From Candidatus Parcubacteria bacterium (GTDB lineage Bacteria; Patescibacteriota; Minisyncoccia; Phycocordibacterales; CAIZLB01), in the NCBI GenBank assembly GCA_039795775.1, contig JBDKLC010000005.1, positions 312,638-376,637 of the forward strand: a DNA stretch of 64,000 bases, given 5' to 3'. Below, piece after piece: positions 1 to 60,250 of this stretch (position 1 is its first letter; every line of letters starts with the position of its first letter). Both the position numbers and the translations under genes were made by a program. A model generated the notes under the pieces. That model had not been told where the DNA came from and searched no databases. It saw only the letters and a program-made list of their open reading frames with translations.

Positions 1-1602
1 AGCTCCATATGCGTATGAGTACACATAGAAGTATCGTCGGATATGTGACCACTGGGCAAACATATATCCATCAAGTTCCTTAAACTTCATGACAGGACCA
101 ATGTATTGCTGCATGTGCTTGTTGTGCGATTGAGCGATTTCTTCTTTTGACAAAGAGCCCTTTTCTCGAATTTGCTTGTGAAGATTAAGTTCGAAATTGA
201 AACATGCGATTTGTCGGAATACTGTAGAGATATAATCCTGAATTCTGTCGTGCAAAGCAACAATTTTTTCTTTATCTGAAAGCGTTTTGAGCACTTCTTC
301 AAACGCGAGGTTTTCAAAGAATGTACTCGCAACTTCTGCTACTGAAGTAGTGTAGTGCTGATACATAGTCCGTGGCTTTTTAGAAAGCTCTGTATGAATA
401 GCATGACCCATTTCGTGAGCAAGTGTCATCACTGCATCTGTACTTGGTACGTGGTTGAGCATGACCAATGTAGGAACATTACTTCCTCCCCAGCAATATG
501 CTCCACCTTCTTTACCCTTTTTTGGATGCACATCTATCTGTCCATTTTTTACCATTGAATCAAGAATATCTACATATCGAGTACCTGCTCGGGCAAAACC
601 TTGTCGAGTGAGCTGTAGAGCTTCGTCAAAACTTACTTTCTTTTCAGTTTTTCCAATACCAACACCTCGATCTGCATATTCCAATGAAGGAAGCTTAAGA
701 AGTTTCGCCTTTAGTTTGTAGAATTTTTTACTGATAGTAAATCCTTTTGTAACAGTGTCTACAAGGGCCATAATTGCCTTTTCATCGTTTTGATAGCCCT
801 TAATTGTTGCACTATATGGATGTTCGTAGCCTCTGAGTTCGTCGTTTATCTTTTTATTTGTATAAATTGCGTTAATTTCATGTTCAGCAAAGTATGAGAC
901 GTTCTTTAAAGTCTCATTTACTAGATCTTGTAGTTTTCGTCGGTCCTTTGTTGGTAACTGTCCAATACTGTTTGTGGCTTCAGCGAGAGACATGACTTTA
1001 CCCTTGAATGTAACAGTCTGTGCTGAACGAACTTTAGCAAAACCATCTACCCACATATCGAATGCTGGTCTATTCTTGAGGCTCATTATTTTTTCCTCTG
1101 CTTCAGTTAGGTTGTAGCGCGCACCTTCGAATACTGTTTGGAGGTAGTATGTATAATCATTCAAAACTGGGCTTGTAAGAAACTTCTTTTGCTGTTCTTT
1201 TGAAATTTTTCCGAGTTTAATTTCAAAAAACAAAATGAGGTTTGAAGCCTTTGTTAATCGTGGTTCGAGCAATCCCACTTTTGCTGTAAGTGCACTGTTT
1301 TGACTTTCTACACTGAGTCGATTGTAGAGATAAAACATTGGTCGAGATGAACCAACCGTTTCAGTCATTTTTTCTAGGTCGAGGAGAGCTGTATATAATG
1401 CTTGTTCATCAGAAAGATAGTCATCTTTTTTTGCATAAGTATCAGCAAACGTCTTAAACGCGCGCTCAATAGTCTGTATATCAGCTTCAATGTTAGGGTC
1501 TTTTTCGTTTTTGTATAGCAAGGTGAAATCCCATTCTGTTTTATAGTCGGGTTTGCTTGTTTTTGTAGTAGTTGATCGATTTGTGGATGGCGATTTTTTC
1601 AT
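1..1602 (-). CDS. pepF: Oligoendopeptidase F (M3 family metallopeptidase), C-terminus truncated by window edge
   Basis: Long minus-strand ORF starting at 1602 and running off the window. The translation carries the HEXXH zinc motif (LAHEMGHAIH) and overall M3/PepF-like sequence. It is not in the ORF track because it has no in-window stop. Confidence 0.8.
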   Translation of the reverse strand, partial: MKKSPSTNRSTTTKTSKPDYKTEWDFTLLYKNEKDPNIEADIQTIERAFKTFADTYAKKDDYLSDEQALYTALLDLEKMTETVGSSRPMFYLYNRLSVESQNSALTAKVGLLEPRLTKASNLILFFEIKLGKISKEQQKKFLTSPVLNDYTYYLQTVFEGARYNLTEAEEKIMSLKNRPAFDMWVDGFAKVRSAQTVTFKGKVMSLAEATNSIGQLPTKDRRKLQDLVNETLKNVSYFAEHEINAIYTNKKINDELRGYEHPYSATIKGYQNDEKAIMALVDTVTKGFTISKKFYKLKAKLLKLPSLEYADRGVGIGKTEKKVSFDEALQLTRQGFARAGTRYVDILDSMVKNGQIDVHPKKGKEGGAYCWGGSNVPTLVMLNHVPSTDAVMTLAHEMGHAIHTELSKKPRTMYQHYTTSVAEVASTFFENLAFEEVLKTLSDKEKIVALHDRIQDYISTVFRQIACFNFELNLHKQIREKGSLSKEEIAQSHNKHMQQYIGPVMKFKELDGYMFAQWSHIRRYFYVYSYAYGA

Positions 1603-3799: not shown

Positions 3800-3968
3800 A
3801 CACGCGACGACCTTTATGGGCCGTAAATTAGCTAATAAGTTGTATTAGTTGCGTGTAATCATGGGTAAAATAGTTAAGTTGTGCTAATTGTAGCAAGTAT
3901 TGTCTGTGTTGCAAAATTCACCTCGAAACTATGCTCGACGTTTGAATATATATAAATATCAACAAAGT

Positions 3969-3995
3969 AAAAAGTAGGAATATTTCCTACTTTTT
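3969..3995. terminator. Palindromic bidirectional intrinsic terminator (A-tract, GTAGGAAT/ATTCCTAC hairpin, T-tract), copy 1 of 5
   Basis: Perfect palindrome AAAAAGTAGGAATATTTCCTACTTTTT, immediately downstream of the minus-strand gene 4042..4860. Confidence 0.7.
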
Positions 3996-4041
3996 ACTTT
4001 ATACTAGTTTGAGGTATTTATTGAATTGAACTGAAAAATTA

Positions 4042-4860
4042 CTATACCTTCTTTTTAGATTTAGTTTCTTTCCCCTCTGCTGCTAATTTTGGTTTATGAC
4101 TCAAAAAATGGTCTTTAAACGCATTGCCTGCATCTGTTCGATATCGGCAGTAGTCACATGTAGCGCTTTCTTTTGGAATAGCATCAGAATCGAGGCATTC
4201 CTTGATTCTGCCAAGCGTATCATCAATCCAGTCTGCATTTCCCTTGTATGGAATGACTTTAATATTAAATTCAAGGCGTGAATCAAAACCGTCTCGGTCT
4301 TTTGTAGCATTTGCGTATACGAAGTATCCAGTATCAGATACATCAAAGCCACGGTTACGTAAAAGCCACTGATATACCTCCATTTGCCGTTTATAGCCGT
4401 CTTGCCACTCTGCATCGAGATTTACCTCACTATCCTTACTTGTCGACTTATAATCGACTACAATCAATTCTCCTTTCTTATTTATCCAAACATCATCTAC
4501 TGCACCAAAGATCAAAAAGTTTGTTGGTTCATGGTAAAACTGAACACCAACAAAGTTTTCTCGCCATGTATCCATTTCGTCATGTGCGAACGGAATAGCA
4601 TCGATTTTGTTTTCTGACATAAGTGGATGGGCCGTAGAGTCAGCACGGTGGACATCAAACTCTTTTTTCAAAAGATGATCTACAGCACTGTTGAGGTTGA
4701 AGGGAAAACTAGCAGGGCGGCCAACACCTAATCGACGGTCAAGATAAAAACACCGTGGACACTCAATAAACATATCGATTTTTGATCGACTGAGTTTGAA
4801 TTGCTCCTTACTTTTAGGGTCGTATTTTTTGACCCATTTTTTGCCAGTTGAAAATGCCAT
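4042..4860 (-). CDS. PD-(D/E)xK nuclease, Cas4/RecB-like, with four Cys (putative Fe-S staple)
   Basis: IVVDYKS and EVYQW (D/ExK) core. N-terminal CPRC and C-terminal CDYC cysteine pairs fit the Cas4/AddB-type Fe-S nuclease architecture. Separated by 2 nt from the upstream gene. Confidence 0.65.
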   Translation of the reverse strand: MAFSTGKKWVKKYDPKSKEQFKLSRSKIDMFIECPRCFYLDRRLGVGRPASFPFNLNSAVDHLLKKEFDVHRADSTAHPLMSENKIDAIPFAHDEMDTWRENFVGVQFYHEPTNFLIFGAVDDVWINKKGELIVVDYKSTSKDSEVNLDAEWQDGYKRQMEVYQWLLRNRGFDVSDTGYFVYANATKDRDGFDSRLEFNIKVIPYKGNADWIDDTLGRIKECLDSDAIPKESATCDYCRYRTDAGNAFKDHFLSHKPKLAAEGKETKSKKKV

Positions 4861-4862
4861 GA

Positions 4863-5732
4863 TTATGAATTCATTATAGACCCAATTTCCTCTAACATAC
4901 TAACTATCTTAGATTCGCTGAATCCGAGATCCTTTAGTTGTTGTGAGCTATTGTACACACTCCTACAGAGTACCATTTTGTGAGTAATGAGAAGCTGTTT
5001 TTCAGCTGGTGTGATTGTTGTGAGAGCTGTCACTGGGTGCAGCTTTGTCTCTTCGATCATATCTCTGAGGTTTCCAACCAGCGGATAATCCCAACTCATC
5101 ATATTGAGTTTGTTACATTCACCATACTTGATAGCTGTTTCTGTGAACTTTGTGTTTGTAATAAGCCATCCTTCTGCAAGTTTTCGAGGCATTTTTCCAT
5201 AGTCGTAAACGTTACTTGCAAGATCTTCATACCGAGCCTTTACATAAAGCGCAACTTTGAGATCGGTCTTACCTGAAGGTTCATTGTGATATTTCACTTC
5301 AGCCATAATGAGTTTATTTTGATTCCAAGCAACAACATCCACTTCGTGAGGAACGCAACTACCAAAGACTACTTGTCCTGTAAGGGCTTCAAAACCTTTT
5401 GCTTTGAACAACTCAGTGACATAAACCTCAAATGGAAAACCAGTTGGACCAAATTCCATAAGAGATCGTCGGAGCGAATATCGGAGCGCCGCGGGTCGAG
5501 CACGTTCTTTGAGCTCATGAAATGCTTTTTTATAAATATCAGACGCTGTTGTATCAATAATCTGATGTTCTGAGATCTGGTGAACAATAGATTTTACGAC
5601 ACTTTCAGCGACATGCTCATCTGCACCTGATTTTATGAGAGAGGTTTTTAATTTGCTTGTCTGAAACTCTTCTTTACTACCGTCTTCTTTTTGGATGTAT
5701 ATCTTTGATTGCATACTACGAAAGTATACCAC
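4863..5732 (-). CDS. ATP-cone domain fused to Mrr-like PD-(D/E)xK restriction-endonuclease domain
   Basis: N-terminal ATP-cone-like segment (KIYIQKEDGSKEEF...KLKTSLIKSG). Downstream HEVDVVAW...AEVKY nuclease core. Overlaps the mnmA 3' end by 17 nt. Confidence 0.6.
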   Translation of the reverse strand: MVYFRSMQSKIYIQKEDGSKEEFQTSKLKTSLIKSGADEHVAESVVKSIVHQISEHQIIDTTASDIYKKAFHELKERARPAALRYSLRRSLMEFGPTGFPFEVYVTELFKAKGFEALTGQVVFGSCVPHEVDVVAWNQNKLIMAEVKYHNEPSGKTDLKVALYVKARYEDLASNVYDYGKMPRKLAEGWLITNTKFTETAIKYGECNKLNMMSWDYPLVGNLRDMIEETKLHPVTALTTITPAEKQLLITHKMVLCRSVYNSSQQLKDLGFSESKIVSMLEEIGSIMNS

Positions 5733-30964: not shown

Positions 30965-31002
30965 AAATATAAATTAACTATAACACACACATCGTTGTAG
31001 GT

Positions 31003-31049
31003 TCATGTATACAAATTCAAATAGCGCAGAGGTGTGTCCTGTGCGCTAT
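31003..31049 (-). terminator. Intrinsic terminator after GC-rich membrane protein gene
   Basis: 8-bp stem ATAGCGCA/TGCGCTAT followed on the minus strand by TTTGAATTTGTAT. Confidence 0.5.
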
Positions 31050-31107
31050 CATAGTCTTCGCTATTGCATGGTGACCTAACCATATATTGATTCATCGTTG
31101 CGCGATG

Positions 31108-31680
31108 CTATTCGCGGTTGTCGGGATGCCCTTCGCCTGGGCCTTCTCCTGGGCGCGCCGCATTGAGCAAGTCGTCGGCAGTGACTGAGGTATTTCCGAC
31201 ATCTCGAACTCCCTGGATGTAAGGCCCCTGTTCGCGAGGACCATCAGGAGTCATCACATGTGAATCCGCAAGGATCACGACAACTTCTACGGTTTCACCT
31301 GAATACTGTGATTCCTGCGAGCCGCCTTTTGGGACAGGCATATAGAGGAACGTATAGTAGGCATACATGATGCAGATGCCGGCGATGATGCTGCCCACCA
31401 TCCAGTTGTAGGAGATGAAGGACAGCAACGGCAGAAGCACCACGGGCCAGTAGACCACGTTTGCTTTGGTGAAGCCATCGGCACTGACGGTGCGGAACTG
31501 GCCGAACAGGAACACTGGTGAGAACACCAGGAAGAAGTCCAGCCAGAGTGCGGCCGTAACCGAACTTGTGACTTTGTAGGCAGCGCCTCCCGCCAAGATT
31601 TGGGCGAAAAGCAGAACGAGCAGAGCCCGAACTGGCATGCGATGCTTTTGAACGATGTGTGACGCGATTTGCGATTTCAT
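31108..31680 (-). CDS. Hypothetical 4-TM membrane protein in GC-rich islet
   Basis: ORF with strongly elevated GC relative to its flanks and 4 hydrophobic helices. Confidence 0.55.
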   Translation of the reverse strand: MKSQIASHIVQKHRMPVRALLVLLFAQILAGGAAYKVTSSVTAALWLDFFLVFSPVFLFGQFRTVSADGFTKANVVYWPVVLLPLLSFISYNWMVGSIIAGICIMYAYYTFLYMPVPKGGSQESQYSGETVEVVVILADSHVMTPDGPREQGPYIQGVRDVGNTSVTADDLLNAARPGEGPGEGHPDNRE

Positions 31681-31908
31681 GGGTTTGTTGTGGTATGTGG
31701 GTTAGACAAATGCTTACCAGAGACCTTCTCCTTCAGCAGAGAACATCCATGTATGTAAAATACGTACACAACACTATCTACAGCATGGATACTTTCTGCT
31801 AAAGGAGGACAAACCCTGTCACGAGAATCAATATGTGAAGGAACTTAGTTCGATGTATATAATAGCATGAAATAGTATAAAAGTCAATGCATACATAATG
31901 CAAAAGAT

Positions 31909-31939
31909 GCAAAAGAAAAGGCCCCAACCGGAGTTGGGG
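31909..31939 (-). terminator. Intrinsic terminator after the second GC-rich islet gene
   Basis: Hairpin CCCCAAC/GTTGGGG with a CGGA loop, followed on the minus strand by TTTTCTTTTGC. Confidence 0.6.
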
Positions 31940-31988
31940 ACCTTGAGAAGTTGTGCGCAAGTCTTCTTAGTAGTGCGCGTGGGCGGGA

Positions 31989-32327
31989 CTAGTCCGTGTC
32001 CCACATCCAGGTGCCGTCATCGCCCTGGTGAGCGCTGCCGGCGTCGGTGCGCATGGAGCCTTCGTCAATGGGGCGAGCCCCTCCGACGCACTTCATCAGA
32101 TGAGTTCCCTCATAGCGGACGTGCAGGCACCCCTTGTGCAAGCACAAGATGATCCATTGGGCGGCCAGCGAGTCGGTCGCGTTGGCGTAGTCGGCCTGAT
32201 ATCGGCCGGGGACAATCAGGTATTCTCCAGCTTTTTCGGTGGAACCGATTTGCTTGGCGAGAATGGCGCGAGCGCCTTTTTCACCTTGGTCGGCGATGAT
32301 TGCTTTAACTTCAGCAAGTGTTTGCAT
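31989..32327 (-). CDS. Hypothetical protein in GC-rich islet
   Basis: A 112-aa ORF with GC near 60%. No motif. Confidence 0.5.
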   Translation of the reverse strand: MQTLAEVKAIIADQGEKGARAILAKQIGSTEKAGEYLIVPGRYQADYANATDSLAAQWIILCLHKGCLHVRYEGTHLMKCVGGARPIDEGSMRTDAGSAHQGDDGTWMWDTD

Positions 32328-32385
32328 GGTTTGTTTCTTTCTATCAGTTGAATGTTGAATTTAGGTTTATGAAACAGCCACATGG

Positions 32386-32437
32386 TGACTGCATCTTGGA
32401 ATGCCCCTCCGTAGAGAGGCGCTTAAAGATGCAGTCA
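32386..32437. repeat. 12-bp perfect inverted repeat with 28-nt spacer
   Basis: TGACTGCATCTT ... AAGATGCAGTCA, upstream of the islet gene. Confidence 0.6.
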
Positions 32438-32559
32438 GACACTCATTGAAACTTTAAATGTGCTTACAAGTACAATAATAGCATATTTAATGCTATTTGT
32501 CAACATACCCTAAGCCCCTATCCTACTAGCAAAATATGGCTTTTTTTAAGCTTATTGGA

Positions 32560-33033
32560 CTACTCTACCTGACTCTTTATCTCTTCAAGTGCTGTAGATA
32601 ATGTTTGTTCTATTTCAATTTTTTCAGCATCAGAAATTTGTCTACCTGGCGATTTTGTAAATACAAAATAAAGCGGACTATCATCTGACAAGTCAAAAGT
32701 CATACCGAAATTTTTTCTAAAAGGTCTCTTTAGTTGTGCTACGAGCTGCGCAGCAATTTTTTGCTCTTCTACGTCTACACTGAGAAATTCAGAATCAACA
32801 CTTACCATGGCAGTCGTGCTTGTAAACTTTAGTCCTAACTTAAACTTACTCATATCTTTCTTTTCTGCGCTTGATTCAGCTGCTACTACTTCTGGATTGG
32901 TTTGACCGAAATTTGCTTCGTGTGATGGCATATTGTTTGGTGTTATGAGTAAATTGTAGCATATATAAAAAATAGAAAACCCCCACGTCCATGTAACGTG
33001 AGGGGTAGAATTTTGATTGACACTTCCAAGCAC
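32560..33033 (-). CDS. Hypothetical protein (the true start may be the internal Met at MPSHEANFG)
   Basis: ORF only. Acidic, with no motif. Confidence 0.45.
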   Translation of the reverse strand: MLGSVNQNSTPHVTWTWGFSIFYICYNLLITPNNMPSHEANFGQTNPEVVAAESSAEKKDMSKFKLGLKFTSTTAMVSVDSEFLSVDVEEQKIAAQLVAQLKRPFRKNFGMTFDLSDDSPLYFVFTKSPGRQISDAEKIEIEQTLSTALEEIKSQVE

Positions 33034-33043
33034 CGTGCGTGCA

Positions 33044-33544
33044 TTAATCGCTTGGTTTACATTTTGGCTTCATGAAAAGCCAGCGTGTAGCGCTTGCAAA
33101 GACAGCGTTGAGATCAATCAACCCGCTGCTGCTATGCGTGCTGCTCACGTATTGGATGTAGCTGGCATGACTAGCTTCAGGGTTGAAAGGCTCGTTGATT
33201 CTGATGAAACCTTTGTCTTGCTCTTGTGAAGCAATTAACGGGTAGTCATCAAGACACGGAACCAATCCAATTTGACTCGCTCGGTCACATATCTCACCAG
33301 CTGTCACTTGGCCATTGGCAAAACCAAGACTGGCAGCGGTGACGACTACTAAAGTAAAGTCTGGTAACTCTGTTTTTGTATACCAGAAACGTGCAGGACG
33401 CACTATCCGCGCTGGGTTTAAGGCTCTCTTTAGAAGCCGCCTTACTTGATCTGGATTTTCGATGAGTTCCTGCATGCGGCCTTGGCTCATGCGAGGAAGT
33501 GATGTTGCTATTGTTGCTAGTAGTTTTGCCGTTTGTGGGCACAT
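33044..33544 (-). CDS. Hypothetical protein
   Basis: A 166-aa ORF with no recognisable motif. Confidence 0.45.
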   Translation of the reverse strand: MCPQTAKLLATIATSLPRMSQGRMQELIENPDQVRRLLKRALNPARIVRPARFWYTKTELPDFTLVVVTAASLGFANGQVTAGEICDRASQIGLVPCLDDYPLIASQEQDKGFIRINEPFNPEASHASYIQYVSSTHSSSGLIDLNAVFASATRWLFMKPKCKPSD

Positions 33545-33604
33545 TGCGTTTTTTCCTTTCGGTGTTCGCTTTGAATGCTAGAGGACATCCACTCCATGTG
33601 GGTA

Positions 33605-33658
33605 GTCATAGCTCGCATATTTCAATTTTAATTACAGTTCAAACATGCGAGCTATGAC
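33605..33658. repeat. 14-bp perfect inverted repeat with 26-nt AT-rich spacer
   Basis: GTCATAGCTCGCAT ... ATGCGAGCTATGAC, in the 5' region of gene 33044..33544. Confidence 0.6.
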
Positions 33659-33776
33659 CAACCTGTGCTTGCAACATAAAGAACTACTGGAGTGTAGTTA
33701 TACAACTTTTTGTAAATAAGTCAACGCAGGTATTCACTGCTGCTTTATCATCCGCAGTCTCCTATCAAATAAAATA

Positions 33777-33809
33777 ACAGCCCCCGAAATGGAGGCTGTT
33801 CTTTTATTT
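33777..33809. terminator. Hairpin + T-run (AACAGCC/GGCTGTT), forming with the next 19 nt a diverged copy of the tRNA-Ala 3' end-plus-terminator unit
   Basis: 7-bp stem with an 11-nt loop, followed by CTTTTATTTG and then the 19-nt tRNA 3'-end copy. Confidence 0.5.
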
Positions 33810-33821
33810 GTGGACCCTACA

Positions 33822-33925
33822 GGATTCGGTCACAGGTCTCGCCGACATGCGGCTCGCCCGCGACCCCGCCTCCCTCGTCTCGGTTCGCCTTGCTCACAAC
33901 GAGACTTCAGTCCGGCTTTCTCATC
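33822..33925. repeat. GC-rich ~100-nt tRNA-associated structured element, copy 1 (candidate ncRNA or mini-insertion)
   Basis: Shares a 52-nt identical 5' module and a 19-nt 3' module with the copy at 60009..60109. The variable centre forms a hairpin in both copies. Flanked by a 19-nt direct repeat of the tRNA-Ala 3' end. Confidence 0.6.
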
Positions 33926-33943
33926 AAGTAGCTCAGGAAATAG

Positions 33944-33980
33944 AAAACACCAGATATATCGTCTGGTGTTTTCTATTTCT
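33944..33980. terminator. Bidirectional intrinsic terminator between element copy 1 and tRNA-Ala
   Basis: 8-bp stem ACACCAGA/TCTGGTGT flanked by an A-run and a T-run. Confidence 0.65.
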
Positions 33981-33981
33981 G

Positions 33982-34054
33982 TGGACCCTACAGGATTCGA
34001 ACCTGCCACCCCCTCAGTGCAAATGAGGTGCTCTACCAAATGAGCTAAGGGCCC
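33982..34054 (-). tRNA. tRNA-Ala (anticodon TGC)
   Basis: Manual cloverleaf: acceptor GGGCCCT/AGGGTCC with the G3:U70 Ala identity pair, D arm GCTC...GAGC, anticodon loop TTTGCAC, T-loop TTCGAAT. CCA is not encoded. Confidence 0.9.
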
Positions 34055-34512
34055 GTTTTGTTGTGAGAATATAATAGCCTAAATTTTTAAAATAGCCAAG
34101 CCCTGCCCTCTTTCTATCCACAGGCAACACATAAAGGCGACATCTGAGAAATGAAAAAGCCATCCTGTGTGGATGACCTTGTGTAAAAAATTTTAGACGG
34201 AGTCTAAAGAGTGGGCCGAAGCCCACAGAACATATACTGACGACTCTGAGGTGGCCAAGGACATTCGGTGGCACTGGTACACGAATATTGACGAGAGCTG
34301 TTTTGCTCAGTGGCCTACATTGCGGCCTAGCCATGTATGATTCGAGCGATCGGTTCGCAACGCTTTGACGGGCAAGCGCTAAACATCGTTGGTCTCATAG
34401 CGTCCGAGAGACCTCATACACCTTGGCCACCTTCTCTAGTCATTAGTGGCCTGTCCAACACTTTACTACATTTATCTAAAAAATCAACCCATTTACACTG
34501 ACATACTCTGAC

Positions 34513-35550
34513 CTAAACAGTTCGTCGTCGCATAGCGAGATTGAGCATGTGTTTGAGGAATTCGTGTGCTTTTACACCTGCAGCTTCGAGAGATTTGAGG
34601 AATGGTGAGTGCTCACCAAGACCAGGCTGTGTGTTTATTTCAATAAGATAAACGCCTCGAGTCGGAGATACGATGAAATCGGCTGATGAATAGTGGTCGA
34701 TACCCATGCCTGTGTGTACTCGTCGAAGAATGTCATTGATCTGTGCTTTTTCTTCAGATGTTAGCTGCGCAGGTACTTGATGATGAAAAAGACCTGACTG
34801 CTTTGTGGCGTAGTCGAAGATATGATCTTTCTTGCCTTTTTGTCGGCCTTCTTTGTGTTCGCCTTGTGGGTCGAGATGATGCTTCACTTCTACAGGCATA
34901 AGTGTGTAGATGTCGTTGCCACGAAAATCTTCGAGTGTTCCTGAGATGATTTCCTTTCCACTAATAAATTCTTCTACTACTATTTCTGGAGAAAATTGTC
35001 GAGCGTGGTCGATGGCTTCGAGGAGCTCTTGGAAGTTTGTGGCGTGTGTGACACCAATAGATGAGCCAAGTCCTCGGGGCTTTACCACAACAGGCATTGG
35101 GAATGACCGGAAAAGGTCGTGTGCAAGAGGTTCGAGGTTGTCTGTCTTATTCACAAACAAATCTTTGTAGTAGGGAGTCTTGATACCATGCGCTTTGAAC
35201 TGCTCTTTTGCCATAGACTTGTTCATAGCCACAGCAGATGTAAGTGAGTTTGATCCAGTAAACGGAATTGAAAACGCTTGGAGGATTTTTTGGATTTTGC
35301 CGTCTTCGCCATTTTCTCCGTGAAGCGCATTAAAAATAACATCTACTTTTTTGAGAGCTGCTTCTGGTTTGAGTGGAATACCATCAATGTGCCACTCGCC
35401 TTTTTTATCAATAAAAATATCTACAGGAGTGTAGAGTTGAGACATATCAGAAGATCGAAGAAGGTCGATGATCCGTTTGCCTGTTTTGAGAGACACTTCA
35501 TATTCTGATGAATTGCCACCTCGGAGAATGCCTACTTTAATAATTGCCAT
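34513..35550 (-). CDS. ddl: D-alanine--D-alanine ligase
   Basis: ATP-grasp Ddl N-terminus (IIKVGILRGGNSSEYEVSL). Start set at the internal MAIIK. Confidence 0.85.
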   Translation of the reverse strand: MAIIKVGILRGGNSSEYEVSLKTGKRIIDLLRSSDMSQLYTPVDIFIDKKGEWHIDGIPLKPEAALKKVDVIFNALHGENGEDGKIQKILQAFSIPFTGSNSLTSAVAMNKSMAKEQFKAHGIKTPYYKDLFVNKTDNLEPLAHDLFRSFPMPVVVKPRGLGSSIGVTHATNFQELLEAIDHARQFSPEIVVEEFISGKEIISGTLEDFRGNDIYTLMPVEVKHHLDPQGEHKEGRQKGKKDHIFDYATKQSGLFHHQVPAQLTSEEKAQINDILRRVHTGMGIDHYSSADFIVSPTRGVYLIEINTQPGLGEHSPFLKSLEAAGVKAHEFLKHMLNLAMRRRTV

Positions 35551-41444: not shown

Positions 41445-41660
41445 TTTAATCCTCCAAGGTTGAATGTTCAAATCTAGCCCCTCTTTCCAGGGTTTAGGAA
41501 AGTAGCCAGACCAAAATCCTACCACACGATTTTACTTTCATCAAGGTCGTTGAGACACTTATAATTAATGAATTCTGATATATAAATTTAATATATACAG
41601 CTTCGTATATATTCGTATATAAAGATAAAGAAGATAAAATATGTATAAAAACATCTCCTA

Positions 41661-41691
41661 GTAAAAAGTAGGAATAATTCCTACTTTTTAC
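41661..41691. terminator. Palindromic bidirectional terminator, copy 2 of 5
   Basis: GTAAAAAGTAGGAATAATTCCTACTTTTTAC. Confidence 0.7.
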
Positions 41692-42080
41692 TTTGATAGA
41701 AATTATATATATCAGATATATACGACACCTCTTCAAATTGCTAAAAAAGACTGACACTCTATATTCACACTCTCCCCCTTGAAATCATAAAAAAACAGCG
41801 TATAGTATATTTCCAGAGGGAACGCTGCCAACGTTCAAAGGCATTCTTTAGTCGTTTCGCAAGAAATGGCAACCCAAAGAGTGTATGAGGTCACGGCATA
41901 ACCCAAGTAGAAACCAAGCACGAATGCAAACGCATCCAAGCACAGCAGATAGCGAAAACATGGTCCATCCACAAGGAGGCCAATATACGCTATCCTACAA
42001 GGCGGGTAACTATATCCGCCACCTCGGTCCCGGCCGTTTTCCGCGCATCCTGCTCGGCGACTAACCTCGCCATCATCGGT

Positions 42081-44216: not shown

Positions 44217-44381
44217 ATATGTGTATGTATGAGTATGAGCGCAAAAATGCGTGATTACCTAGACTATATCATAGAGGGTCATACGCACGAAAGATGTGTT
44301 TAATTTGCTGCGCAAATAACGTTTGAATACGTGCTGAAAACTGTTAAAAAAAGATCAACTATAGTGCAAAAGGTACAAAAT

Positions 44382-44408
44382 AAAAAGTAGGAATAATTCC
44401 TACTTTTT
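44382..44408. terminator. Palindromic bidirectional terminator, copy 3 of 5
   Basis: AAAAAGTAGGAATAATTCCTACTTTTT downstream of tgt. Degenerate half-copies follow at 44440..44475. Confidence 0.7.
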
Positions 44409-44513
44409 ACTTATATAGTTTTCTATATATATTTATATGAATTAATATAAATGTATCCCTACTTTTATTCCTACTTTTGTCTCTACTTTATATCTGCCTT
44501 TATATTTACATTC

Positions 44514-46988: not shown

Positions 46989-47176
46989 TCCTCACTAGCT
47001 AGAAACCTTGCGATCGCTCCCGAAAGAGGGGGACGATGTAAAGGTGCTTCAGTAGTAGTATAACGTCTTATAGGGGTTTTGCAAGCCGAATTTAGCCAAT
47101 TATATAGAGGGTTAAATTGATATATTGTGGCATGGGAGAATTGATATATAGGATATATGTATAGTTTGTAACCATA

Positions 47177-47205
47177 GTAAAAGTAGGAATGTTTCTTACT
47201 TTTAC
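47177..47205. terminator. Palindromic terminator family, degenerate copy 4 of 5
   Basis: GTAAAAGTAGGAATGTTTCTTACTTTTAC, with one mismatch in the arm. Confidence 0.5.
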
Positions 47206-47345
47206 AAACAGTGAGTTGTATATGTTTGTTGGGAAAAGCCATCGAATTCCCTATTTTTAAAATTTAAAAACAAAAGACCCACCCGAAAGTGAGAATTTTG
47301 TGAAATTCCCAATCGGGTGGGTCGCGTGGATATTCGAAACGAATC

Positions 47346-54786: not shown

Positions 54787-54853
54787 TTTTTGCTTTTGCT
54801 ATTGCTGTTGCTATAGTGCGATGTAACAATACTATAAGCTAGTGCGTATATAG

Positions 54854-54880
54854 AAAAAGTAGGAATAATTCCTACTTTTT
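54854..54880. terminator. Palindromic bidirectional terminator, copy 5 of 5 (between convergent topA and parB)
   Basis: AAAAAGTAGGAATAATTCCTACTTTTT. Confidence 0.75.
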
Positions 54881-54955
54881 CTATATATACCCGAAGATAT
54901 ATATTTGACCTATTTGATCTATAGATAGACCAGCTCCTGATATTTACTCTGATAC

Positions 54956-59430: not shown

Positions 59431-59500
59431 GTATATGTGTCGTGAATCTGAATGGGATATCGCGCTTCGCCGTTTAATTTATGTAATTAATCGTATCACA

Positions 59501-59540
59501 GAAGCCGGCTCACTGCGCGACTGCGTCCGGCTTTCTCGTC
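59501..59540. repeat. Partial (3' module) copy of the tRNA-associated GC-rich element
   Basis: CGACTGCGTCCGGCTTTCTCGTC matches the element 3' module CGACTGCAGTCCGGCTTTCTCATC and is preceded by a hairpin. It holds the same position relative to the terminator and tRNA-Trp as the other two copies. Confidence 0.5.
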
Positions 59541-59556
59541 CATCGTATAGAACCGT

Positions 59557-59596: not shown

Positions 59597-59599
59597 ATG

Positions 59600-59671
59600 C
59601 GGGCCCACCAGGACTCGAACCTGGAACTGCGGTTTTGGAGACCGTCGTTTTACCATTGAAACTATAAGCCC
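59600..59671 (-). tRNA. tRNA-Trp (anticodon CCA)
   Basis: Manual fold: acceptor GGGCTTA/TGGGCCC (two G:U pairs), D arm GTTT...AAAC, anticodon loop CTCCAAA, T arm CCAGG-TTCGAGT-CCTGG. 72 nt. Confidence 0.85.
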
Positions 59672-59988: not shown

Positions 59989-60008
59989 AGCAAACGCCCA
60001 AATATTGG

Positions 60009-60109
60009 GGATTCGGTCACAGGTCTCGCCGACATGCGGCTCGCCCGCGACCCCGCCTCCTTTGTCGCCATCGCAAGCGATATGGCGACTGCAGTCCGGC
60101 TTTCTCATC
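60009..60109. repeat. GC-rich ~100-nt tRNA-associated structured element, copy 2
   Basis: Identical to copy 1 over GGATTCGGTCACAGGTCTCGCCGACATGCGGCTCGCCCGCGACCCCGCCTCC and over CAGTCCGGCTTTCTCATC. The central hairpin has a different sequence (GTCGCCAT...ATGGCGAC) but the same geometry. Confidence 0.6.
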
Positions 60110-60127
60110 TACCCCATCATTGGAAAT

Positions 60128-60159
60128 AAAAAATACCCCTCAAATGAGGGGTATTTTTT
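60128..60159. terminator. Bidirectional intrinsic terminator between element copy 2 and tRNA-Tyr
   Basis: AAAAAATACCCCTC-AAAT-GAGGGGTATTTTTT. Confidence 0.75.
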
Positions 60160-60166
60160 ATTTCTG

Positions 60167-60250
60167 TGCGTGGGGAGGGATTCGAACCCCCGTAGCCCAA
60201 TGGGCGATAGATTTACAGTCTACTGCGATTGACCACTCCGCCACCCACGC
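60167..60250 (-). tRNA. tRNA-Tyr (anticodon GTA), long variable arm
   Basis: Manual fold: acceptor GCGTGGG/CCCACGC, D arm GCGG..TCGC, anticodon stem GTAGA/TCTAT with loop CTGTAAA, long variable arm, T arm GGGGG-TTCGAAT-CCCTC. Confidence 0.85.

Follow-up and report, generated by a model that had tools for sequence, protein, structure and literature searches.

T-loop-type att sites carry a direct repeat that spans the T loop to the tRNA 3' end, and some CRISPR-associated transposons use homing guides against tRNA genes and land about 50-65 bp downstream of them. In Nanoarchaeum, split tRNA genes include separately encoded 3' halves that are joined via GC-rich complementary leaders. A direct repeat at a tRNA-Ala gene in the window (the whole stretch of 64,000 nucleotides that was analysed) bears some likeness to each of these systems and was originally predicted to be the classic footprint of a site-specific integration. 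We found that it is the tail of a structured RNA element and no integrase att scar, and that this element is a previously undescribed, widespread structured RNA element of the ultra-small CPR/Patescibacteria bacteria.

The window contains exactly two copies of GTGGACCCTACAGGATTCG, one at 33810-33828 and one at 33981-33999, with no further match at up to 3 mismatches and none expected from 100 shuffles, which rules out a chance or low-complexity origin of the repeat. The 19-nt exact copy that had been predicted was borne out, and direct reading showed that it is one base longer, giving 20 exact nucleotides (33809-33828 and 33980-33999). Its template is positions 56-74 of the tRNA-Ala(UGC) gene (33981-34054, minus strand; ARAGORN, with an Rfam tRNA score of 64.9 bits), which has no encoded CCA (...GGGUCC-A-C, then AGAAA). 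The repeat therefore runs from C56 to C74 of tRNA-Ala plus one base and comprises the T-loop 3' half, the T-stem 3' strand, the acceptor 3' strand, the discriminator and a C, so that the ARAGORN and Rfam placement agrees with the tRNA origin that had been proposed for it (T-loop 3' half and acceptor 3' strand). The sole promoter-like site on the minus strand within 33500-34600 (TTGGCT-17-TATTAT, 34071-34099) lies upstream of tRNA-Ala and the promoter scan of that interval found none between tRNA-Ala and the element, which we counted as an argument for expression together with the tRNA. As for a conserved non-coding RNA in the 450-nt gap upstream of tRNA-Ala, there was no Rfam match and no clear conservation (3 relatives).

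A terminator-like hairpin was indeed found beside each copy of the repeat, on the minus strand in both cases. The first (33937-33979, inverted repeat I2), with an 18-bp perfect stem, a 7-nt loop and a U-rich 3' side, is the intrinsic terminator of tRNA-Ala itself and aligns with the terminators of the element-carrying locus L003 and of the element-free ortholog L088. The second (33766-33810, inverted repeat I1; 33776-33800 on the minus strand in the terminator scan) closes the element, in which it takes up 33766-33808. Read on the tRNA strand, the order is thus the tRNA, its own terminator, a 14-nt linker, a 94-nt domain, the copy of the tRNA 3' end and the second terminator, and the GC-rich element lies exactly between the two repeat copies, as predicted. 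The idea that the duplicated unit extends to about 60 nt by including the trailer was not established, because the trailers after the two copies are identical at 30 of 45 aligned positions when shuffles reach up to 28 (30 shuffles).

This first element copy has three parts, all on the minus strand. The linker with the 5' strand of the closing helix P1 (CUGAGCUACUUGAU, 33923-33936) was delimited from folds and from the covariation of P1 across the family; in these folds, GAU pairs with A59-U60-C61 and CUAC with G64-G67 of the tail. The 94-nt three-way-junction domain (33829-33922), defined by our model R1, by conserved blocks and by the covarying helices P2 and P3, consists of GAGAAAGCCGGA, the variable hairpin P2, GAGGCGGGGUCGC, the hairpin P3 and GUGAC, and R1 scores 94.1 bits (E 6e-24) over 33815-33931. 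The tail (33809-33828) is the 20-nt exact copy of tRNA-Ala C56..C74 plus A (19/19 of the tRNA part, exact prefix of 20), of which nucleotides 59-65 form the P1 3' strand, most of the acceptor 3' strand being unpaired.

The element is a discrete unit that also stands at tRNA-Tyr, as the original prediction had it. Behind the tRNA-Tyr(GUA) gene (60166-60250, minus strand; ARAGORN and Rfam) and the terminator hairpin that follows it (60123-60164), a second copy at 60002-60115 on the minus strand was identified by R1 (81.8 bits, E 1.5e-20) and by alignment to copy 1: its 3' two-thirds are identical to copy 1 and its P2 is swapped for a different, compensated hairpin. The weaker equivalent of the repeat that had been noticed there is thus accompanied by a whole element copy, but the tail match is limited to the first 8 nt (8/19 positions match tRNA-Tyr), so that this tail is decayed. 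A possible remnant of a third copy lies at 59447-59546 (minus strand) behind tRNA-Trp (59599-59671), seen from an exact 13-mer and from reading the sequence: GACGAGAAAGCCGGAC is retained and little else, and the R1 score (9.8 bits, E 0.76) is not significant alone. At least two of the four tRNA genes in the window therefore carry the element, with a possible remnant behind a third.

Outside the window, the domain was found in at least 80 metagenomic loci and in 3 CPR genomes. The tRNA genes in front of it cover at least 15 isotypes, and the tail copies the locus's own tRNA each time. The family members measure about 115-170 nt, are encoded on the same strand as the tRNA and follow directly on its intrinsic terminator. 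Among 53 distinct tRNA-element pairs, the tRNA end is located 24-90 nt upstream of the element, and in window-type copies its distance to the domain clusters at 55-65 nt. Divergent copies behind tRNA-Met, Arg, Leu and Ser obey the same rule. A possible 4-nt CGAA repeat flanking the domain was also seen in divergent copies and is suggestive only. Some loci hold several copies: in L042, elements lie between the tRNAs of one cluster and 3 of the 4 tRNA genes carry one; tandem units occur in L012, L037, L038, L054, L065 and L084; and an identical module with its spacer stands behind tRNA-Ser(GCU) and tRNA-Ser(UGA), two of these copies sharing an 81-kb contig (L045 and L064). The domains of a Saccharibacteria-like stretch and of a Parcubacteria metagenome-assembled genome are about 94% identical.

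Several matches were set aside as chance: 4 of the 7 genome matches of a 21-mer, which come from non-CPR genomes rich in GC and have no tRNA close by (L001, the one that was inspected, falls in sequence that looks protein-coding), and L011 and L057 from the metagenome scan, which have none of the downstream conserved blocks of the element. INPHARED and PLSDB gave no meaningful matches, a single weak partial match to a Gordonia phage being taken as chance, and IMG/VR held no element copies. Rfam 15 at the gathering score found only tRNAs in the whole window; on the locus at E<=10, nothing covered the element and the few weak sub-threshold overlaps (such as sR035, 23 bits for a cutoff of 233) were noise; and on 10 other loci at E<=1, no family covered it, so that tRNAs and a tmRNA were the only credible matches of all these scans. 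Full-text literature searches, which included work on Patescibacteria tRNA introns, found no description of this element.

The tail is a copy of the mature tRNA end. Its identity to the locus's own tRNA is 0.82-0.98 per position over positions 56-73 and, in about 20 of 51 loci, breaks off precisely at position 74, the trailers past this point being unrelated. CCA is encoded in 13 of 36 intact tails (36%) but in only 5 of 51 tRNA genes (Fisher p=0.006), and the paired comparison of tails and genes gives 12 versus 2 (p=0.013); a tail that was perhaps copied from the mature tRNA would explain this CCA. At tRNA-Ala, the T-stem of the tRNA differs between the window and L003, and the tail changes with it. 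There are also loci in which the domain is kept and the tail is decayed or not derived from a tRNA (copy 2 of the window, positions 1400-1488 of L042, L055 and L027).

The domain of about 94 nt combines the invariant cores GAGAAAGCCGGA, GAGGCGGGGUCGC and GUGACC with two variable covarying hairpins. Family-wide, 90.5% of the helix cells are paired, and the covariation score is 0.380, compared to 0.161 in shuffles (0 of 500 reach 0.380) and at most 0.122 with slid partners. In P1, 79% of the cells are paired and both sides change in 6 of 7 pairs. Its 3' strand corresponds to nucleotides 59-65 of the neighbouring tRNA's 3'-end copy, which runs from C56 to the discriminator plus C and often CCA; its 3' junction is C56-G57-A58 and its 5' junction in divergent copies is still TTCGAA. 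The resulting topology is that of a tRNA T-arm in which the domain takes the place of T54-Psi55 and which continues into the acceptor 3' strand, the tail being mostly unpaired beyond P1. The strand of the element is fixed, because a G.U pair in P3 is invariant (62/62 and 41/41), and the tRNA-sense strand folds better than the opposite strand by 11-13 kcal/mol; judged from sequence, the structure may nevertheless be one of folded single-stranded DNA rather than RNA. A 7/7 complement that could serve as acceptor 5' strand was found at the expected place only in the tRNA-Ser lineage (5 loci), two other 7/7 complements lying elsewhere in the sequence and not being significant, and no general two-stranded acceptor stem was found (4 of 62 loci do better than shuffles at p<=0.05).

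The reading that we favour, with somewhat less than even confidence, is that the element is an RNA-level truncated tRNA mimic that carries the conserved domain. It resembles the tRNA-like domain of tmRNA, YrlA/Y RNA, viral 3' tRNA-like structures and mascRNA in its mimicry of the T-arm and acceptor end, in the NCCA-type 3' end seen in a third of the copies and in the grafting of a non-tRNA functional module onto a tRNA-like part. It differs from them in that its module replaces T54-Psi55 inside the T loop, in that D and anticodon arms are missing, in that most copies have no acceptor 5' strand, in that each copy mimics the adjacent tRNA and in that their Rfam models do not match it. Of what a tRNA mimic should have, a T-arm analogue closing on a T-loop-like junction is present (P1, C56-G57-A58, TTCGAA), and a two-stranded acceptor stem is absent outside the tRNA-Ser lineage.

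As such a mimic, the element would be expressed as RNA, either from transcripts that run past the tRNA terminator or as part of tRNA operons, and read-through may be low because the terminators between tRNA and element look strong (L003). The RNA is predicted to fold as a truncated tRNA and would act by displaying the conserved domain alongside a tRNA 3' end of the mature type (NCCA). Its tRNA-like arm would most likely recruit RNase P, 3' trimming and the CCA-adding enzyme, by which the domain would be matured and stabilised; since most copies lack the acceptor 5' strand, recognition by RNase P is doubtful for them. Function would reside in the domain, as a catalyst or as a binder of a protein or ligand, and selection or conversion would keep the tail identical to the cognate tRNA. 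The direct repeats made by the tail would then account for tandem amplification and for precise loss. Against this reading, mobility of the element is suggested by its presence in some close relatives and absence from others, by its tandem arrays and by a module that recurs behind two tRNA-Ser genes on a single contig.

None of the ribozymes, riboswitches and introns that we compared accounts for the domain. Hammerhead, twister, hairpin and HDV ribozymes and group II domain V, as well as the RNase P CR-I/P4, the sarcin-ricin loop and the GEMM-I and ZTP riboswitches, showed no convincing likeness by eye and had no Rfam support. The tRNA introns of Patescibacteria belong to the same phylum and are likewise structured RNA insertions tied to tRNA genes, but they are self-splicing group I introns within the anticodon loop of complete tRNAs, whereas the element has a 94-nt domain without an Rfam group I match and sits in a truncated copy downstream of an intact tRNA. 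An intron of a complete tRNA was rejected, as in silico removal restored a tRNA across the junction in 0 of 81 cases and no group I or II family of Rfam matched.

A processing scaffold alone should preserve P1 pairing and not identity to the tRNA, yet in both the window and L003 the tail follows the tRNA and P1 is weak (3+4 bp). This exact identity despite a weak P1 fits a role that needs the exact tRNA sequence, be it homing or partnership with the tRNA. It is possible, and we propose it tentatively, that the tail is functional as an exact cognate tRNA 3' end and that the element is the RNA component of an undescribed tRNA-directed system of CPR bacteria. Possible forms of it include a homing or guide RNA directed to the copied tRNA gene, a spare 3' half or an external-guide-like partner, the 94-nt domain being in that case a new ribozyme or a protein-recruiting scaffold.

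A more specific and rather doubtful reading is that of a selfish non-autonomous mobile element that homes to tRNA genes, with the domain as scaffold and the 19-22-nt tail as guide or homology segment. By analogy with the scaffold-plus-3'-guide RNAs of TnpB and Cas12 and with the tRNA-targeting guides of CRISPR-associated transposons, it would insert at a short, fairly fixed distance downstream, just past the terminator, through a trans-acting enzyme encoded elsewhere. The orthologous tRNA-Ala sites are empty in L088-L090 and filled in the window and L003, the element starts right after the tRNA's own terminator, and the clustered 55-65-nt distance of window-type copies, the tandem units, the shared tRNA-Ser module, the about 94% domain identity between the Saccharibacteria-like stretch and the Parcubacteria genome and a tail that is mostly unpaired past P1 and tracks the tRNA rather than its P1 partner all fit such homing. 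The geometry is also reminiscent of TnpB omega/reRNAs and Cas12 crRNAs, with a scaffold of about 100 nt followed by about 20 nt matching a tRNA gene, and of homing guides of CRISPR-associated transposons, with an element a few tens of nucleotides downstream of the matched site. However, in this 94-nt domain with a 19-22-nt tail equal to the tRNA gene 3' end, the first 7 nt of the putative guide are locked in the covarying P1 and the CCA extension has no counterpart in the target genes, where it would be a mismatch for a DNA guide. Unlike the guide RNA systems, the element has neither an effector or transposase gene in cis nor transposon ends, and neither an adjacent tnpB or iscB, nor IS200/605 ends, nor an Rfam omega-RNA match was found. 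Transposase, recombinase, integrase, TnpB, IscB, Cas and reverse transcriptase are absent from the 25 most frequent Pfam families of the neighbourhood (135 ORFs, about 45 loci), and none lies beside the window copies; no autonomous copy exists among 99 model matches, and phage, plasmid and IMG/VR collections lack the element. Terminal inverted repeats were not found either, the only inverted repeats being the two terminators and internal stems, and a candidate 15-nt 73% pair (33827-33841 and 33900-33914) was rejected as composed of halves of internal stems and as missing from copy 2; nor is there the short fixed target-site duplication of a MITE, an IS-type transposon or a casposon-like insertion at tRNA 3' ends, the repeat being 19-22 nt long and ending at the mature tRNA end. 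Finally, P2 is strongly diverged between the window and L003 despite a common insertion point and a similar linker, which indicates long vertical residence and not recent jumps.

Quite unlikely, in our estimate, is a trans-acting partner of the cognate tRNA, in which the free acceptor/T-stem 3' strand with NCCA pairs with the tRNA 5' part. Such an RNA could replace the 3' half where the T-loop or 3' end of a tRNA is damaged, or be a natural external-guide-like RNA that brings RNase P or another enzyme to the 5' strand, and the domain would supply catalysis or protein binding. The exact identity from C56 to the mature end, the CCA enrichment, the missing acceptor 5' strand of most copies and the parallel changes of T-stem and tail at the orthologous tRNA-Ala locus agree with it, and a fold of the read-through transcript pairs the tRNA 5' strand with the distal tail; this pairing is, however, thermodynamically degenerate with the canonical tRNA fold. 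A pairing of the linker with the cognate D-arm, suggested by the same fold of the window (p=0.02), was rejected, since it did not generalise: complementarity reached p<=0.05 in 3 of 53 pairs, and mean duplex energies were -8.0 kcal/mol for cognate, -8.3 for shuffled and -8.4 for non-cognate pairs. The copies that keep the domain with decayed or non-tRNA tails, and the lack of any repair ligase or nuclease linked to the element, also speak against such a partner. The split tRNAs of Nanoarchaeum and engineered RNase P external guide sequences share with the element a separately encoded tRNA 3' portion, made of a T-arm analogue, the acceptor 3' strand and NCCA, which stands beside a GC-rich structured segment and could pair with a tRNA 5' portion, but a complete and normal tRNA gene lies upstream of the element, the 3' portion starts at C56 only and there is no complementary 5'-half gene.

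We consider integration by a tyrosine or serine integrase into the tRNA 3' end, as a miniature element or as the remnant of a decayed or excised island, to be very improbable. Like tRNA-gene att sites, the locus has a direct repeat that begins in the T loop, stops at the tRNA 3' end and measures about 19-22 nt (here the 20 nt of C56-C74 plus one base), its tRNA is intact and its insert is missing from some relatives: the search for empty sites that had been proposed found tRNA-Ala with its terminator and no element in L088, L089 and L090, all with uvrC-ddl-tRNA-Ala synteny. A serine recombinase gene stands beside tRNA-Ala in the element-free L090, which indicates that the locus is used by true integrative elements. 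An attL model, however, predicts that the flank of the intact tRNA is element-derived and that the distal copy keeps the original flank, and we found the opposite: the tRNA-proximal flank is original and not element-borne, because its hairpin is orthologous to the terminator of the empty site and aligns with those of L088 and L003. Moreover, att sites should belong to one element lineage specific for one tRNA, with a repeat that is a DNA copy of the gene, whereas here one conserved, covarying and strand-specific structured domain carries a different tRNA end per locus over at least 15 isotypes, with CCA in tails (13/36) that the genes mostly lack (5/51). The insert also keeps the same size of about 100-170 nt in at least 80 loci (about 150 nt in the comparison with att sites, and without an integrase), no integrase was among the most frequent Pfam families near the copies of about 45 loci, and the absence of one beside the window copies, already noted in the original prediction, was confirmed, the four ORFs downstream of copy 1 having no Pfam match. 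Of the readings first put forward, the attL/attR footprint and the island scar are therefore not supported, and the third one, an RNA gene duplicated along with the 3' segment of the tRNA, comes close to what the evidence shows.

A cis-regulatory leader of the downstream gene, riboswitch- or T-box-like, is equally hard to credit: several copies do lie directly before a same-strand gene with no terminator between (copy 2 before rpmG; L009, L014, L032) and the three-way junction with its conserved unpaired bases looks aptamer-like, but the downstream genes are mixed (methyltransferases, pilin-like proteins, ABC transporters and purD-/tsaD-like ORFs, so named from N-terminal sequences and in agreement with GARS_A and TsaD among the neighbour families), a terminator, or 260 nt free of any ORF, follows many copies, no consistent downstream gene class with an expression platform was found, and what stays constant is the tRNA upstream.

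CPR/Patescibacteria account for much of bacterial diversity and combine minimal genomes with an odd RNA biology, including introns in tRNA and rRNA genes. To these reduced genomes, the element adds an unannotated, highly structured RNA for which no described RNA family or mobile element gave a match. Its conserved structured domain sits in the trailer of many CPR tRNA genes, and it copies the mature 3' end of each tRNA. In practice, its 19-22-nt direct repeats at tRNA genes are open to being misread as att sites or island boundaries. Depending on its function, the element would represent a new tRNA-scaffolded non-coding RNA or ribozyme, a new way of targeting tRNA genes or a device for tRNA maintenance.

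The original prediction had described a repeat of the tRNA-Ala 3' end bracketing a GC-rich element, and this description was accurate. The 19-mer GTGGACCCTACAGGATTCG has exactly two exact occurrences in the whole window (33810-33828 and 33981-33999) and no third match there with 3 mismatches allowed, where no such repeat is expected by chance, and a GC-rich segment lies between its two copies. On direct reading, the identity is one base longer (33809-33828 = 33980-33999). Since tRNA-Ala(UGC) occupies 33981-34054 of the minus strand according to ARAGORN and Rfam, the repeat corresponds to tRNA positions C56-C74 plus one base. On the tRNA strand, a long hairpin follows each repeat copy, and the sole promoter-like site within 33500-34600 is found upstream of tRNA-Ala (34071-34099). 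Along this minus strand, tRNA-Ala (34054-33981) is followed by an 18-bp perfect terminator hairpin (33979-33937), a 14-nt linker (33936-33923), a 94-nt domain made of GAGAAAGCCGGA, hairpin P2, GAGGCGGGGUCGC, hairpin P3 and GUGAC (33922-33829), a 20-nt tail (33828-33809) and a second terminator (33808-33766). The GC-rich segment has a second copy downstream of tRNA-Tyr (60002-60115, minus strand) and a remnant downstream of tRNA-Trp (59447-59546). Complementarity between the linker and the tRNA D-arm was also seen in the window, but such a pairing does not generalise and was rejected.

The ~350-nt non-coding gap between ddl and the tRNA-Ala promoter (34156-34512, minus strand) ends with a terminator-like hairpin (34156-34180) and contains long GGCCAAGG/CCTTGGCC-type pairings; it has no Rfam match at E<=1, is not clearly conserved in three relatives, and could be a lineage-specific sRNA or small ORF. 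Downstream of the element, the 31000-33600 region, which may be acquired DNA, has a G+C content of 0.44-0.50 versus ~0.40, shows no synteny with the Saccharibacteria locus L003 or the element-free relative L088, and carries four minus-strand ORFs without Pfam match (31108-31680, 31989-32327, 32560-33033 and 33044-33544). Five near-identical palindromic hairpins resembling terminators (AAAAAGTAGGAATAATTCCTACTTTTT) form a family within the 64 kb (3962-3999, 41656-41693, 44375-44412, 47171-47208 and 54847-54884).

Using an exact 21-mer from P3 as a query for genome searches, the same architecture was recovered in three CPR genomes, behind tRNA-Ala in a Saccharibacteria genome (L003), tRNA-Ile in a Parcubacteria genome (L006) and tRNA-Trp in an uncultured bacterium (L002). 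At least 80 metagenomic loci matched a two-block pattern, including two (L011 and L057) that look like chance matches because the other conserved blocks of the element are absent. Approximately two thirds of the copies have a same-strand tRNA gene (ARAGORN) ending 24-90 nt upstream; those without a detected tRNA are mostly either the second of two tandem units or situated no more than ~100 nt from a contig end, and a few copies are preceded by degenerate or interrupted tRNAs. The distinct tRNA-element pairs number 53, and at least 15 isotypes are represented (Ala, Arg, Asn, Asp, Gln, His, Ile, Leu, Lys, Met, Ser, Thr, Trp, Tyr and Val) when divergent copies found with a covariance model are included. 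In all subfamilies, the domain is followed by 19-22 nt that correspond to the 3' end of the tRNA of that very locus, with a per-position identity of 0.82-0.98 over positions 56-73.

Upstream of tRNA-Ser-type elements, a tRNA-Ser(CGA) is seemingly interrupted after the anticodon region (L023, ~3800-4090, minus strand; L043, ~430-830, minus strand; L077, ~120-410, plus strand), and only parts of it were called by ARAGORN. The interrupting segment of ~200 nt holds another complete tRNA-Ser-like gene and may therefore reflect an insertion or the nesting of one tRNA gene within another. The 'tRNA-Stop(tta)' called by ARAGORN upstream of the L053 and L072 elements has a CUUUUAA anticodon loop and is therefore likely to be a tRNA-Lys(UUU) called out of phase, not a suppressor.

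Two structure alignments, one anchored on the invariant blocks and one made with MAFFT (A2), both support four helices: the closing helix P1, which pairs the 5' flank (-7 to -1) with tail positions 59-65, a 3-bp GCC/GGC helix, P2 and P3. On A2, 90.5% of the cells are paired and the covariation score is 0.380, compared with 0.161 in shuffles (0/500 reaching 0.380) and at most 0.122 with partners slid, with changes on both sides of the helix in P1, in the basal part of P2 and in the interior of P3. A G.U pair in P3 is invariant (62/62 distinct aligned elements and 41/41 A2 sequences) and would become C.A if the opposite strand were read; together with a fold of the tRNA-sense strand that is 11-13 kcal/mol more stable than that of its complement, this identifies the tRNA strand as the sense strand of the element. 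The topology is that of a T-arm with T54-Psi55 replaced by a three-way-junction domain, and divergent copies retain TTCGAA at the 5' junction, so that in these copies a possible CGAA repeat flanks the domain. In the tRNA-domain spacer of one subfamily (L019, L037, L039, L044, L048, L055, L068, L082 and L084), a perfect hairpin of 9-11 bp, whose loop region (AACUGCUU) is conserved, abuts the closing helix on the 5' side, in the position that the D and anticodon arms occupy in a tRNA; copies of the tRNA-Ser lineage have a perfect acceptor 5' strand ahead of this hairpin, giving an L-shaped tRNA-like outline.

The tail resembles the 3' end of a mature tRNA. Its identity with the tRNA ends exactly at position 74 in ~20/51 loci, with unrelated trailers beyond, and CCA follows the discriminator in 13/36 intact tails versus 5/51 tRNA genes (Fisher p=0.006), 12 of these 13 tails adjoining CCA-less tRNA genes (paired p=0.013). 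The window and L003 differ in the T-stem of their orthologous tRNA-Ala (CCUGU and CUGGU, respectively), and each tail matches its own tRNA despite a weak P1 in both. The acceptor 3' strand is unpaired in most copies, and only tRNA-Ser elements of the GGAGAGG lineage have a complete acceptor 5' strand. Tails are decayed in the window copy behind tRNA-Tyr, L055 and L027, and one copy (L042, 1400-1488) is closed by a non-tRNA helix. In L060 and L066, the duplication reaches 24-27 nt past the tRNA end into the trailer, including the whole terminator stem in L060; in L066, the distal copy lacks the second half of the tRNA-proximal hairpin, itself a perfect palindrome. These extended duplications hint at how the junction forms.

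The search for empty sites in relatives was successful: tRNA-Ala and its terminator stand without the element in three relatives sharing the uvrC-ddl-tRNA-Ala synteny, whose Ddl proteins share 71%, 62% and 59% identity with that of the window. By alignment, the empty-site terminator is orthologous to the hairpin that separates tRNA from domain in the window and in L003, and the element starts directly after this hairpin. What lies next to the tRNA is therefore the original flank and the tail is part of the insert, which is the opposite of what the initially proposed attL/attR footprint would predict. In the element-free relative L090, a serine recombinase gene (Resolvase and Recombinase domains; 4103-5641, minus strand) directly downstream of tRNA-Ala looks like a genuine integrative element at this same tRNA locus. 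Tandem units (L012, L037, L038, L054, L065 and L084) and an identical module and spacer behind tRNA-Ser(GCU) and tRNA-Ser(UGA) on one contig would be the expected product of unequal recombination between the 19-22-nt direct repeats.

No Rfam family matches the element, no terminal inverted repeats were found, and an intron of a full tRNA was rejected, as excising the domain in silico restored a tRNA at 0/81 loci. Phage, plasmid and IMG/VR collections contained no copies save one weak partial Gordonia phage match, treated as chance. Genes downstream of elements share no common theme, and the adjoining genes (135 ORFs from ~45 loci) are not enriched in integrase, transposase, RT or Cas families. 

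Altogether, these results show that the element is conserved, structured, strand-specific and physically linked to tRNA genes, and that its tail reproduces the 3' end of the cognate tRNA in mature-type form. Our best, still tentative, reading is that its RNA would be produced by terminator read-through or inside tRNA operons and would fold as a truncated tRNA mimic, whose tRNA-like arm may connect the conserved domain to the tRNA-end machinery and provide it with a defined NCCA end; this domain would be the functional part. A non-autonomous tRNA-homing element using the tail as a guide or homology segment is the main rival, and would fit the empty sites, the location just beyond the terminator and the fact that copies from different CPR lineages are nearly identical; however, we consider it unlikely given that no enzyme gene was found nearby, that the 'guide' is paired, that tails carry CCA and that residence has been long and vertical. 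A trans-acting spare 3' half or an external-guide-like role is more doubtful still, and the integrase-scar and cis-regulator models, both poorly supported, are very improbable. The nearest known systems, namely att duplications at tRNA genes, tRNA-like RNAs, scaffold-plus-guide RNAs and split tRNA halves, each have one feature in common with the element but fail on the others, and the literature searched, including work on Patescibacteria tRNA introns, yielded no description of it. Since no family or system was found to unite a conserved domain inserted in a T-loop with a tail copying the neighbouring tRNA, we rate this tRNA-linked element as new in kind.
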